IMG/VR virus record: IMGVR_UViG_3300025402_000001
DNA length: 64,000 bases
DNA from: an uncultured virus (IMG/VR IMGVR_UViG_3300025402_000001)
Taxonomy: Duplodnaviria > Heunggongvirae > Uroviricota > Caudoviricetes
Reading direction: 5' to 3' (one strand)
Shown: positions 248-49,555 of the stretch, piece after piece
How the letters are laid out: the number at the start of each line of letters is the position of its first letter
How positions within the stretch are numbered: the stretch's first letter is position 1
Translations under genes and position numbers: made by a program
Notes under the pieces: generated by a model
The model's input: only the letters and a program-made list of their open reading frames with translations
What the model was told of the DNA's origin: nothing
The model's database searches: none

Positions 248-302
248 GGTGTTGCTCCTCTTGTGTTAGTCCATCCATTATAACGACCTTTACCGGTCAT
301 TG

Positions 303-569
303 TCAATCATATACGCCGATCTCGCCGGCATTGATCCACTCTGCGTGCAGTCCATACCGGCGCAGGGTGTTGGTGATCAGTGGGTTGATGCCAAACTCCC
401 AGTCCAGTATCCGATAGCCGTCGTAGTAGTCAGCCCACACTGTGTCGCGGTCGTAGTAGTCGTAAATACCCTCGGCGCTGATCTGAAAATTCTCGATGTC
501 ACTGCGCTCGTACACTGGAGCGCCGATCTTTTTGAGTGCGTTAAATGCCAGTCTGTGGTTGCGTTTCAT
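303..569 (-). CDS. hypothetical early protein
   Basis: 88-aa ORF with GGAGG RBS. Confidence 0.65.
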   Translation of the reverse strand: MKRNHRLAFNALKKIGAPVYERSDIENFQISAEGIYDYYDRDTVWADYYDGYRILDWEFGINPLITNTLRRYGLHAEWINAGEIGVYD

Positions 570-720
570 ACTACCTCCGTGTTTGTTTTGAAATATAAAC
601 TAGGTGTTTTTTCGTCACTGTTTAAAGGAGCAGATTGAGCCGTTTTGGTCGATCTTTTAAACCACCTTTGACCATCAGTCGTATAGAAAAAAGTAAAAAC
701 TGGGACATCTAAAAAAGTTT

Positions 721-978
721 TCATACTGCCTCCAATAATTGATCTAAAGTTAAGTCTAAGAACTCGGCAAACTCATCAAAGGCAAAGCCTCGCTCCCAGT
801 TATTAAACATTCTGTCTTCGTTGCCGTAGCACTCAGGGTGCCGGTATGCAATAAAGTCGTGATACAAGGATTCATAATTCATACTGCCGTACTTGGCGAT
901 TGCTTTATCTGTATTCATAATGTTAGTCCTTGTAAATGATTTCGTAGTTAAGTACAACAAACCTCTTTCTTGGCTCAT
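721..978 (-). CDS. hypothetical early protein (alternative start near 918)
   Basis: ORF; both candidate ATGs have AGGA RBS. Confidence 0.55.
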   Translation of the reverse strand: MSQERGLLYLTTKSFTRTNIMNTDKAIAKYGSMNYESLYHDFIAYRHPECYGNEDRMFNNWERGFAFDEFAEFLDLTLDQLLEAV

Positions 979-987
979 AGCTACTCC

Positions 988-1056
988 TTATTTTGAAGTG
1001 GTGAATGCAAGTAATACTGGAATAATTACTAACAACGCAATTAAAAAATCTGTCAT
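988..1056 (-). CDS. small membrane peptide MTDFLIALLVIIPVLLAFTTSK
   Basis: hand-translated; AAGGA RBS; single hydrophobic segment. Confidence 0.5.
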   Translation of the reverse strand: MTDFLIALLVIIPVLLAFTTSK

Positions 1057-1074: not shown

Positions 1075-1126
1075 GGTCTCATCAGTATACTATAAAAGTA
1101 TAGACCACGTCAACGTGGTTTCGACC
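1075..1126 (-). ncRNA. type II hammerhead ribozyme
   Basis: minus strand reads GGUC GAAA CCACG-uuga-CGUGG UC^ UAUACU-uuuau-AGUAUA CUGAUGA GACC; full core and three perfect stems. Confidence 0.92.
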
Positions 1127-1128
1127 TG

Positions 1129-1434
1129 TCAGATAAACTGGAAATACTCGGGGTTAAACTCGCCCCACTGCTCTGCCTTGTCGCCGATCAGCGAGCCCTT
1201 ACCGAGCTCATGGTCAAACACTGCCACGCAGTCCTGATCCAGTGCCGTTGCCAGCACGGCCAGCGAGCCCTTGTGGCTGATGTACTGGATGATGACTGTA
1301 GGCTCGTCGCGATCATAAGAAACACGCAGTGCAACGATGTCCTGCACAAATACCAGCGCGACTTCTAAGGTCTTGTCCACACTGTTAGTATTGCCGATAA
1401 ACGGGTTATTAAGTCCGATGTTGATTGTGTACAT
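1129..1434 (-). CDS. S-adenosylmethionine lyase (T3 gp0.3/SAMase-like), probable anti-restriction protein
   Basis: DEPTV and DQDCVAV correspond to T3 SAMase EEKTV and EQDCVLV; first gene after the early promoter. Confidence 0.75.
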   Translation of the reverse strand: MYTINIGLNNPFIGNTNSVDKTLEVALVFVQDIVALRVSYDRDEPTVIIQYISHKGSLAVLATALDQDCVAVFDHELGKGSLIGDKAEQWGEFNPEYFQFI

Positions 1435-1672
1435 ATAGTCCTTATTGTATATGGTTAGTACTGCCTCGAGCTCACTACATTGTAATGAGCTCTGAGCACT
1501 ACTATCGTCCGACTGTTGCGATTACTTAGCGCCGTCGGTACTTCTTTAGCTCCCCTTGCCACTGTCTAGGCTGAGAGCACAGGCACCTATGCACCTGATC
1601 TGCCACATGATTAGAGAGCTTGGTACTTAGTCGGCTCTTAAGTGGATTAGCCACTGCACTTCCTATGTATCT

Positions 1673-1701
1673 AATATAACGACCTTGCAATGGAATGGCA
1701 A
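1673..1701 (-). promoter_or_regulatory. host sigma70-type early promoter
   Basis: TTGCCA-17 nt-TATATT on the minus strand, facing the early genes. Confidence 0.65.
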
Positions 1702-2651: not shown

Positions 2652-2963
2652 ATGACAGATAAGTATGTATACCAAATCCAAGGCGCGTTAGAGAACGCCG
2701 CCGGTGAGTTTAAAGGCTTGCGGATACTGGTATGTGACCTGTACAACTTTGACTCAGTGGATGTGCCAGTGGATATACTGGACAACGAGACGGCAAAGTA
2801 CATCCAGTTTAGGCTAAACTGCACCAAGGAAATAATGAACATAGCCAAGCTGCCATTTAAAATCCAAGATAATATTCGGGGGCCGTTAGGGCCCTGGCTG
2901 GACCACTGGGTCCGAGAAAACTTCCATGGCGATTTTAGCAACAGAAAAAGTCTTAACTTATAA
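2652..2963 (+). CDS. hypothetical protein (probably leaderless)
   Basis: 103-aa ORF directly after the promoter motif. Confidence 0.65.
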   Translation: MTDKYVYQIQGALENAAGEFKGLRILVCDLYNFDSVDVPVDILDNETAKYIQFRLNCTKEIMNIAKLPFKIQDNIRGPLGPWLDHWVRENFHGDFSNRKSLNL

Positions 2964-3918
2964 CTACTGGAAGCCAGCCTACAAGATTGAGGTTGGTGAC
3001 TACCTGTTTGACCACAACGGAAAACCTACTAAGGTTACACTGGTCCAGCAGTACCACACCCAGGATTGCTACAGGGTCACCCTATCTGACGGGCTGACTA
3101 TCTCAGGCGACAAAAACCTGGCATTTCCCACAGAAAACTTAAAATACCGAAATAGGTTACAAACCTATAAGGGCTTCTTTAAATTTCGAAGACCATTAAG
3201 ACCTATGAGTATCGAGGCTTTACAAAGCACATCTTTAAAAATAAAAGACAAGGAACTAGCATACTCCATCCCGTCTACTAAACCCTTAGCTTTACCACAC
3301 CAGGACCTACCAGTACCCCCATTCGTATTTGGGTACTGGTTTATAAACAAAAATGCCACAAACCATATCAGATCCCCTAAGGCATATAAAGACATAATAC
3401 CTCAAAAATTAAAAGACCGGGGGTACCTGATAACCCAGCAGCGTTGTCATAAAACCCATCGCATGGTCTATAGTACCGAGCCTAGAGTTGAAATGCAGCT
3501 GATTGGTAAAATACCAACCAACATCCCAGATAACTACCTACTAGGATCTATGGATCAAAGAATTGATCTGCTCTCTGGTATACTGTACGCCAAAAGAGGA
3601 TGGTACAACTTAAAAAACGATAGGTTTACCATTACCCTAAAAAGTTATCAACTTATACGGCAGATACAGGGGCTTGTAGAATCCCTTGGAATTAAAACAT
3701 CAATGTACTACAGGGAAGATAACAACGAGTATGTGTTCTCATTTCGTAGCCGTTTGCAGCTTATGGACCACCAGGTCTCACCAAAAATAAAAGTCCATCA
3801 GGCCCGGCGGTACATTGAACACATTAAACAAATTGAGCCACAGCTGTGTGTTCATATAGAAACCGAGGGGGCTGATAAGAGCTTCTTAGTCGGGGAAGGT
3901 TTTATATCATGTCTTTAA
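2926..3918 (+). CDS. free-standing intein-like protein (Hint plus degenerate LAGLIDADG domain)
   Basis: N-terminal block AILATEKV..VGDYLFDHNGKPTKV, LPVPPFVFGYW, QRIDLLSGIL, C-terminal block RRYI..CVHIET..FLVGEGFI; no terminal His-Asn. Confidence 0.8.
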   Translation: MAILATEKVLTYNYWKPAYKIEVGDYLFDHNGKPTKVTLVQQYHTQDCYRVTLSDGLTISGDKNLAFPTENLKYRNRLQTYKGFFKFRRPLRPMSIEALQSTSLKIKDKELAYSIPSTKPLALPHQDLPVPPFVFGYWFINKNATNHIRSPKAYKDIIPQKLKDRGYLITQQRCHKTHRMVYSTEPRVEMQLIGKIPTNIPDNYLLGSMDQRIDLLSGILYAKRGWYNLKNDRFTITLKSYQLIRQIQGLVESLGIKTSMYYREDNNEYVFSFRSRLQLMDHQVSPKIKVHQARRYIEHIKQIEPQLCVHIETEGADKSFLVGEGFISCL

Positions 3919-48591: not shown

Positions 48592-48927
48592 TTACTTCTT
48601 AGGTTTTGTTTCCGTGCTTTTTAGCACTCCCTTAGTCTTCTTGGAAACTGCTGGGATTACTGGATTGGTTACCACCGCAATCTGGGCCATTGTCTCGTAG
48701 TATTCCAAGGTCTTTGTCAAGGCACTATGCAGCTCTTGTACAAACTTAAAGTTTGCCTTGTCATAGTCACCTAGATAAATATTAACCATATCTTTTCCAG
48801 TGCTAATGGCTAGGCTGATATTGAAGTTATCTTTATCGGTGCCCTCACCTGATAGGTCAAGAAAGCTAGGAAGACCATAGTCCGTGCTTGGAAAGAACTT
48901 ACTAAACTTCAGCTTGATGTTCTTCAT
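48592..48927 (-). CDS. hypothetical protein
   Basis: ATGA-coupled 111-aa ORF. Confidence 0.6.
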   Translation of the reverse strand: MKNIKLKFSKFFPSTDYGLPSFLDLSGEGTDKDNFNISLAISTGKDMVNIYLGDYDKANFKFVQELHSALTKTLEYYETMAQIAVVTNPVIPAVSKKTKGVLKSTETKPKK

Positions 48928-49442
48928 ACAGCAAAGTCCGACGCTGCTGATGTAGACCCACCAAACTTCTCACCATCCTCTAACTTCTGCACATTGTTCA
49001 AGCCGGCAGCAATACCCTTAGAGCCGCTTGTATCGTACGGATACAAAGTGATGGATGCACGGCCATAGCAACCTGAGTAGAACTCGCTGGTGTCGATGAT
49101 TGGGTTCAGGTCTTGGTCTACAATACCTGGGCGTTCGTTAGAGCTGGCGTTGATAAAGTAATGACCTGCATAAGCCGCGTCATCTTTCTCTGCATCACCA
49201 TCACGTAGTCCGCCTTTAAGGAGCTTAGGTACTGAGCCACCCCACACGGCTGCGTTGATTGTCTTGGTCTCTTCAAACGCCTTCTTAAAGCGCGCCACTG
49301 TCTCTGTGTCTGACTTAGGGATAAGGATGGATACAGAGTACTTTAACACGCCGTTTGGTGTCTCAGCTGGCTGGAACACGTTAGCGTAAGAGAAGCGAAC
49401 CTTGCCAGTTACAAACTTGGTCTTGATTGATTTTGTTGCCAT
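48924..49442 (-). CDS. single-stranded DNA-binding protein (DUF2815/gp2.5-like)
   Basis: VRFSYANVF..KYSVSILIPK..LRDGD..YSGCYGR..GLNNVQKL.DGE; promoter motif at 49509-49519. Confidence 0.9.
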   Translation of the reverse strand: MATKSIKTKFVTGKVRFSYANVFQPAETPNGVLKYSVSILIPKSDTETVARFKKAFEETKTINAAVWGGSVPKLLKGGLRDGDAEKDDAAYAGHYFINASSNERPGIVDQDLNPIIDTSEFYSGCYGRASITLYPYDTSGSKGIAAGLNNVQKLEDGEKFGGSTSAASDFAV

Positions 49443-49555
49443 GATGATTATTACCTTTTTAACATAAAGACTGGACTTCATTTGGGGCCAGTCTGTCTAC
49501 CCATACACATATTAATGCAAAAACAACCTACTTTTTATTTCACAATATGAGATAT

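Follow-up and report, generated by a model that had tools for sequence, protein, structure and literature searches.

The stretch of DNA analysed here, 64,000 nucleotides from the uncultured virus record IMGVR_UViG_3300025402_000001 and referred to below as the window, represents most of a dsDNA phage genome organized into two divergent arms. The right arm begins at 2652 and encodes terminase, portal, and capsid, the last being 66% identical to that of the Caulobacter phages GB2A/RW; the minus strand carries small ORFs followed by primase and polymerase genes. A host search against a genome collection returned only one weak match, to Streptomyces. The gap between the arms contains three 37-nt direct repeats with a 15- to 20-nt element in both orientations (2007-2193) and a 14-bp perfect inverted repeat (2053-2091), all of which are possible origin or packaging signals. 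Elsewhere in the window, Rfam detects a DUF2815 RNA (49440-49503, minus strand; 73.8 bits) before a 185-aa ORF (48924-49481). In addition, a 330-aa ORF on the plus strand (2926-3918), which overlaps the start of the terminase gene, has a weak LAGLIDADG match as well as matches to terminase-family inserts and looks like a free-standing intein-type element.

The leftward early arm (Table 1) comprises a sigma70-like promoter, an RNase III-type hairpin, a gene for a SAM-lyase-like protein, a compact hammerhead ribozyme with a further promoter-like sequence inside its DNA, a run of small ORFs, and another sigma70-like promoter; the first and the last of these promoters share an 18-nt repeat. The sequence-only reading had named the SAM lyase as the first early gene, and in this genome the lyase-like gene does come first: no RBS-led ORF of at least 20 aa was called in the 1.5 kb upstream of it on the same strand. 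Its position in the arm, together with the presence of distant homologues within the opening kilobases of T7-like genomes (for example, at 1046-1405 of 40,688 in a Ralstonia phage), suggests that the gene is expressed early. In relatives, the lyase-like gene is often the second or third gene.

Table 1. Features of the leftward early arm, in the order of the minus strand
Feature	Position	Strand	Remarks
Sigma70-like promoter, probable start of the leftward early arm	1673..1701	-	10/12 consensus bases; 17-nt spacer
RNase III-type hairpin opening the arm	1456..1504	-	21 nt before the start codon; z -6.1
SAM-lyase-like protein, 101 aa, phrog_11722 family	1129..1434	-	Glu44 and Gln67 match catalytic residues; Gly-x-Tyr lid absent
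Stop codon (TGA) of this ORF	1131..1129	-	followed by a 2-nt gap before stem II
Compact type II hammerhead ribozyme	1075..1128	-	stems II/III/I of 4/5-6/6 bp; invariant 5' CA flank
Stem II, 5' strand	1126..1123	-	
GAAA	1122..1119	-	
Stem-loop III	1118..1105	-	
UC	1104..1103	-	5' of the cut
Predicted self-cleavage site	1102..1103	-	after UC; descriptor search
Stem-loop I	1102..1086	-	
Core CUGAUGA	1085..1079	-	
Stem II, 3' strand	1078..1075	-	
Sigma70-like promoter inside the ribozyme DNA	1084..1113	-	-35 TTGACG in loop III; 18-nt spacer; -10 TATACT
22-aa hydrophobic ORF with RBS	988..1056	-	first gene past the cut and the promoter
Three further small ORFs of the same run (85, 52, and 88 aa)	303..978	-	no informative family match
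Sigma70-like promoter	277..306	-	perfect consensus; 18-nt spacer; predicted next transcription start in the arm

The protein encoded by the first gene matches a single PHROG, phrog_11722, which is of unknown function. Single-sequence searches with it gave no significant match in Pfam or the PDB, the ESM Atlas returned no usable match, and a profile of its close family reached the T3 SAMase only at E 0.1, ranked below HMA domains. Its AlphaFold model (pLDDT 95) adopts a ferredoxin/PII-like fold, for which Foldseek listed Svi3-3 (6ZM9) as the best match at E 0.01 and the T3 enzyme third; VIA likewise put Svi3-3 on top (Z 7.1 and 7.4, rmsd 2.9, 85-86 residues aligned), with ACT domains within 1 Z unit. 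A profile of 130 members had the T3 SAM lyase as its sole match in the PDB at E<=1 (E 0.0086; hhalign E 2e-5), the alignment placing Glu44 on T3 E68 and Gln67 on the T3 QDC motif. Glu44, Gln67, and Trp90 are invariant in all 130 members. The catalytic residues of known enzymes are a Glu (Svi3-3 E69, T3 E68) and a Gln (Svi3-3 Q104), and mutation of T3 E68 abolishes rescue (PMC7877911). The same source describes Gly56, strictly conserved in proven SAM lyases, and Tyr58, both in the lid hairpin that encloses SAM; a Gly-x-aromatic motif 7-18 residues before the Glu is found in 12 of the 130 members and in T3 but not in the window protein. PF23780 (S-AdoMet_lyase) matches 60/130 relatives at E<=0.05 (best, 7.6e-7), and T3's own family, phrog_2226, matches 20/130, the window protein remaining unmatched by both.

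The sequence-only reading had called this ORF a SAM lyase. As a statement of remote homology, and no more than that, the name stands. A related family with the same Glu and Gln cleaves SAM-AMP, not SAM (PMC12255297). We conclude that the window protein likely descends from SAM lyases, and we think it reasonably probable, if less so than this descent, that it cleaves SAM; the gene is thus a probable anti-defence gene. By extension, the about one thousand unannotated phage proteins of phrog_11722 (985 representatives at E<=0.001) are probable SAM-lyase relatives. As for annotation, the T3 SAM lyase is labelled "SAM-dependent methyltransferase" both in a sequence record (L410, 901-1359) and in phrog_2226, a label that hides SAM lyases.

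Behind the lyase-like ORF lies the ribozyme. We defined a type II hammerhead as the core CUGANGA plus GAAA and UH round a three-way junction, with stems I and III looped and stem II open, and the window element has all of these features. A descriptor search recovered exactly what the sequence-only reading had proposed, namely, a complete type II hammerhead in the sense orientation, 2 nt past the stop codon, with a cut at 1103/1102, and 1126..1075 was the sole match to types I-III in the 64-kb window. A family model, which includes the window copy, also gave a single match in the 64 kb at E<=5, at the same site. When applied to 1465 shuffled windows, the descriptor that was also used on the loci described below produced 12 loose matches and none that was equally good. 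The minimum free energy structure of the 54-nt piece is the hammerhead fold, with a modest z of -2.0. At the level of sequence, the motif at 1126..1075 is thus confirmed as a real hammerhead of type II. No second copy was found within 4-5 kb downstream in two identical contigs (L012 and L102).

A search of the window with the Rfam hammerhead models, which had been suggested as a check, would have missed the element. That is, Rfam reported no hammerhead in the window at the gathering score or even at E<=10; the window copy does not reach the gathering threshold of Hammerhead_II (RF02276), and the compact copies in close loci are also unmatched, whereas three copies in one locus (L062) score 49-54 bits. 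Since Rfam is blind to the window ribozyme, the suggested check would give a false negative. Other ribozyme classes were not detected by Rfam in 19 mostly close loci or in 16 loci with distant homologues.

Loci carrying homologues of the lyase-like gene contain this compact ribozyme in the sense orientation, and all type II matches in the gene-first loci lie on the sense strand. Among 35 distinct copies of equal length, every one of the 560 cells is paired and covariation is seen at 11 of 16 pairs, far in excess of controls made by shuffling or sliding. All three stems include covarying pairs (2/4, 4/6, and 5/6), and the core is invariant apart from its N position. As the copies were chosen by a pairing descriptor, full pairing is partly by construction, which does not apply to the variety of pair types; 29 of 64 distinct copies were excluded from this set, mostly because their stem III differs in length or an additional base follows the core. 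Loop I opens with U, and CA flanks the ribozyme on its 5' side, in 64/64 copies, suggesting a U-A tertiary pair; a conserved reverse Hoogsteen pair has been described for hammerheads of types I and III (PMC6155905). Many type II motifs have a pseudoknot between loop I and the 3' tail. Here, complementarity between these two parts has a longest match of 2-3 nt in 68 of 71 family contexts, and there is no family-wide pseudoknot. The window contains a 5-nt complement to loop I located 5 nt past stem II and just before the RBS, the like of which occurs in 1/71 contexts and which might form a pseudoknot.

In one locus (L134, 3908-3965), the element immediately before the SAM-lyase-like gene is a member of this ribozyme family permuted to type III. 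In two others (L007 and L009, both 1924-1990), copies directly preceding the SAM-lyase-like gene have an enlarged loop III with an extended -10-like sequence.

A further reading is that stem III and the U-rich bases that follow it constitute an intrinsic terminator behind the lyase gene. A consensus scan does list 1119..1104 as terminator-like; however, the U tract is broken, lies inside stem-loop I, and is missing from most family members. We rejected this reading, which we consider very improbable.

Of the 65 distinct close loci, among which near relatives are numerous, 46 have a type II hammerhead within 2.5 kb of the lyase-like gene and 19 do not; the module is therefore dispensable. The ribozyme lies directly upstream of the gene in 28 of the 65 loci, directly downstream in 18, and on both sides in 7 (gene maps of the loci miss some ORFs, for example in L019; the locus counts come from separate analyses). 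Five loci (L033, L035, L111, L132, and L145) have no type II hammerhead near the gene, but several of their early genes are preceded by perfect or near-perfect promoters. Viral loci found ribozyme-first have a lyase-like gene in 6 of 124 cases (4/84 among those with at least 2.5 kb of sequence), and a type II hammerhead within 2.5 kb was seen in 4/50 loci of distant homologues.

Of 213 compact copies, 158 start no more than 8 nt from the stop codon of an upstream ORF and 180 are followed by an RBS and ATG, at a median of 47 nt from the cut. The 152 proteins encoded downstream of ribozymes form 93 clusters, one of which is ArdA; 84 of the 93 cluster representatives had no Pfam match, and an enrichment of known anti-defence genes behind ribozymes is not demonstrable from this search. 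These distances and the 93 downstream clusters therefore define a portable unit of the early arm in a clade of uncultured dsDNA phages, made up of a stop codon, the compact type II hammerhead, and an RBS. As judged from sequence, this intergenic module is tied to no single gene and can occupy any gap among the first few genes. The early arms of relatives read promoter, hairpin, gene, hammerhead, gene, hammerhead, with the genes shuffled.

This distribution bears on the proposal, also made in the sequence-only reading, that the phage self-processes its early polycistron and thereby uncouples the stability of the anti-defence mRNA from that of downstream genes. A ribozyme that specifically serves the 3' end of the lyase transcript would fit the 2-nt distance to the stop codon here, the 18/65 close loci with the ribozyme directly downstream, and the stem-loop III that the cut would leave on the lyase mRNA. 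Yet, upstream placement is commoner (28/65), an identical 54-nt ribozyme sits upstream of the lyase-like gene in another locus (L142), many different protein clusters follow such ribozymes, and neither the ribozyme-first nor the distant homologue loci often combine the two. We thus regard a dedicated 3'-end function as improbable and let that part of the proposal go, with self-processing of the early polycistron retained as the best reading.

A portable module might also chiefly be a site of recombination that shuffles early genes, with RNA cleavage secondary, as in the precedent of the T4-type PeSL cassettes (PMC2839356). Consistent with this, genes between modules are exchanged, a 56-row tree implies 26 changes of the element before the lyase-like gene, ribozyme halves reassort, and identical ribozymes occur in differing contexts (8/64 sequences have more than one set of flanks, about half of these differing in gene). 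However, recombination would require neither perfect covariation in three stems nor an intact catalytic core, and shuffling is better understood as a consequence; a primary role of this kind seems to us more improbable still than a dedicated 3'-end function.

Like the ribozyme, the hairpin at the head of the arm belongs to a conserved family, recurring in relatives before whichever gene stands first. In 25 distinct copies, 98.7% of cells are paired and 6/19 pairs covary; with the box register set by the T3 hairpins, the GC/AU of the proximal box and the UG/UA of the distal box are invariant in 25/25 copies and the pairs between them covary. The geometry of the upper stem resembles that of T3 R0.3 and R0.5. 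Six determinants, with an 11-bp upper helix, have been listed for E. coli RNase III (PMC1540722). Four of these are kept here and two are not: position 3 of the proximal box is GC in 23/25 copies (E. coli preference, AU), and position 4 is unpaired (preference, AU/UA); the host enzyme may differ from that of E. coli. Across 64 loci, the slot directly before the lyase-like gene holds a hammerhead in 28, the hairpin in 15, both in none, and neither in 21, a mutual exclusion that is partly trivial as both fill one slot. Several loci without a hammerhead have a bare promoter about 60 nt upstream of the gene. Upstream of the RNase III-type site, the window leader contains two further hairpins (1510-1580, minus strand), the counterparts of which vary among relatives.

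What is new here is a ribozyme variant with a predicted sigma70-like promoter in its own DNA. The sequence-only reading noted neither this promoter-like sequence nor the hairpin upstream of the gene. The -10 hexamer TATACT coincides with the 3' strand of stem I plus the CU of the core; together, the near-consensus hexamers match 10/12 consensus bases, with a spacer inside the 16-18 nt criterion, and would place a transcription start near 1077. The embedded site is among the three best minus-strand sites in 1-2700, where the scan found 11 sites versus 5.5 expected. In 239 distinct ribozymes of the same stem I length, a set enriched for the -10 by an earlier search, both boxes occur together in 7, the -35 alone in 0, the -10 alone in 25, and neither in 207; the P value for this co-occurrence (4e-7) is overstated, since the seven promoter-bearing sequences are related and share ancestry.

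Combination of the stem III and stem I halves is otherwise unrestricted within the close clade, 10/12 other recurrent stem III types being found with several kinds of partner, but all three -35-bearing stem III types pair only with TATA stems. The -35 also persists through compensatory changes in stem III. In early regions of the clade, promoters of the same style number 79 in the sense and 1 in the antisense orientation, 23 of them with an 18-nt spacer. The promoter-bearing variant stands directly before the lyase-like gene in 11/12 loci, the window being the exception, and falls at seven places on the protein tree, six of which are forced by well supported branches. In one locus (L485), the variant precedes another gene. 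A virome-wide scan found the ribozyme-promoter combination in this clade only, with 3/82 matches being hammerheads. A general link between TATACT hammerheads and promoters was considered and rejected: a -35 with at least 5 matches occurs in 8/70, 7 of them beside a lyase-like gene.

On balance, we think it somewhat more likely than not that the ribozyme DNA at 1113..1084 acts as a promoter. A broader proposal is that about 50 bp serve both as a sigma70 promoter in DNA and as an active hammerhead in RNA, cutting off read-through RNA and starting fresh RNA at one point, and are kept by selection before an anti-defence SAM lyase of a new, lid-less subfamily; that ribozyme, hairpin, and bare promoter are interchangeable means of giving each early gene a 5' end of its own; and that the clade has moved stepwise from ribozyme to promoter. 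We advance this tentatively, rating it as plausible and just short of probable.

Is the window copy still a working ribozyme? Its loop I reads UUUAU as against UNANG in the family, and its 3' flank departs from the family as well (1/64). Loops outside UNANG are found in 5/7 promoter-bearing copies versus 2/57 others. When the surrounding sequence is included, prediction favours by 0.6 kcal/mol (-18.7 versus -18.1 kcal/mol) an inactive structure over the active one; it joins the core to the flank and pairs the next RBS with the 5' strand of stem II. Stem II of the window copy ranks 14th-15th lowest of 72, weaker than most and no outlier. In one relative (L126, 65-127), the first core base is U instead of C and both promoter hexamers are kept; this is a single contig, which could contain an error.

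The departures from UNANG, this core change, and the competing fold would all suit a module that in this lineage is now mainly a promoter, its ribozyme slow or decaying. The core is, however, intact in 11/12 promoter-bearing contexts, stems I and III show compensatory pair changes within the promoter-bearing set, and the loop I U1 and 5' CA are kept in 64/64 copies; a mainly promoter-like module is therefore unlikely in our view, if less so than the alternatives discussed above. We consider that the window copy probably self-cleaves, albeit at a rate that may be slow.

Sequence, covariation, gene order, and co-occurrence, from which we infer cleavage, RNase III action, promoter firing, and SAM cleavage, are best explained by an intergenic module that cuts the early transcript and that, in one variant, contributes a promoter too, an explanation we hold with fair confidence. 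In this scheme, host RNA polymerase would start at the promoter near 1701, host RNase III would trim the leader at the head hairpin, and the hammerhead would cut the transcript at 1103/1102. Owing to the type II topology, both products would keep a hairpin at the new end. On the lyase mRNA this would be stem-loop III, followed by a cyclic phosphate; the downstream mRNA would open at the first base of stem-loop I, which would bear a 5'-OH and lie about 47 nt ahead of the next start codon. RNA ends with a 5'-OH resist 5'-end-dependent decay, and both the 5'-OH and the hairpins would be stabilising here. Each small early gene would thus receive its own defined, protected 5' end, as from the RNase III sites in T3. 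The promoter variant would both cut read-through RNA and, shortly ahead of the next RBS, initiate fresh transcription. Among relatives, it would boost the lyase-like gene; in the window, gene shuffling, which the repeated modules would explain as PeSL cassettes do, would have left the lyase gene in front of the ribozyme.

The clade offers natural swaps at one position, including a hammerhead, a hammerhead plus promoter, an RNase III-type hairpin, a bare promoter, and one core mutant. Because these swaps surround a gene with a simple read-out, the purpose of the ribozyme is directly testable. In addition, the analysis brings to light a compact hammerhead family missed by Rfam. A 2019 review repeats the idea of cutting into single-gene mRNAs and calls the purpose of bacterial and phage self-cleaving ribozymes largely elusive (PMC6765202). 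The literature we searched, mostly outside subscription journals, contained no paper that brings together a hammerhead and a SAM lyase and, for phage ribozyme-promoter overlap or ribozyme processing of early polycistrons, nothing closer than Perreault et al. 2011 and Pr77/L1TcRz.

The protein compares with Svi3-3 (6ZM9/6ZNB), the T3 SAMase (7OCK/8BB1), and PF23780 in its ferredoxin/PII-like fold and catalytic Glu and Gln. It differs in that the beta-hairpin lid, the site of Gly56 and Tyr58, is shortened, and its family adds an invariant C-terminal Gly-x-Leu-x-Gly...Trp motif. Full membership in that class would further imply a trimer whose active sites lie between subunits, and cleavage of SAM to MTA and homoserine lactone.

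As to the ribozyme, Perreault et al. (2011) described hammerheads flanking prophage genes, including ardA, and proposed that they cut transcripts into single-gene mRNAs; these clustered ribozymes of prophages were active both in vitro and in E. coli (PMC3088659). Their set resembles ours in being type II, with a canonical core and several copies round small genes, one of which is an anti-restriction gene; in the present family, too, ArdA is found behind a compact ribozyme. The basic layout of hammerheads round phage anti-restriction genes has thus been known since 2011, which caps the surprise, and Dataset S1 of that study may already include the family described here. Our family differs from that set in its compact 4/5/6-bp form, 5-nt loop I, and lack of a family-wide pseudoknot, and in being missed by Rfam Hammerhead_II. 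It is also paired with an RNase III-type head site and has one variant that holds a promoter; the main text of PMC3088659 mentions neither RNase III nor S-adenosyl compounds.

The T4-type PeSL cassettes, as described in PMC2839356, are likewise small repeated units that place sigma70-like promoters and stem-loops between shuffled non-essential genes, but their stem-loops are terminators, whereas here the stem-loop element is a ribozyme with the promoter within it. In Pr77/L1TcRz of Trypanosoma retrotransposons, a single stretch of nucleotides serves as a promoter when DNA and as a self-cleaving ribozyme when RNA (PMC3383444). According to that source, the promoter is a eukaryotic internal one and the ribozyme HDV-like, in contrast to the sigma70-type promoter and hammerhead of a phage considered here, where transcription would begin anew at a point past the core.

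The T3 early region is a closer parallel than the sequence-only reading had it. Both have a host-type promoter, an RNase III-type hairpin ahead of the lyase gene, and, where that gene ends, a promoter combined with a processing site. That is, the order in the T3 annotation (NC_003298), R0.3, SAMase gene 0.3, and then promoter B with R0.5, is mirrored in the window by hairpin, lyase-like gene, and ribozyme with promoter. The phage is nonetheless not T7-like, as its capsid indicates, and its lyase-like protein has 101 aa compared with 152 in T3. In the window, the downstream site is a ribozyme instead of an RNase III hairpin, a hammerhead being absent from the first 3.2 kb of T3.
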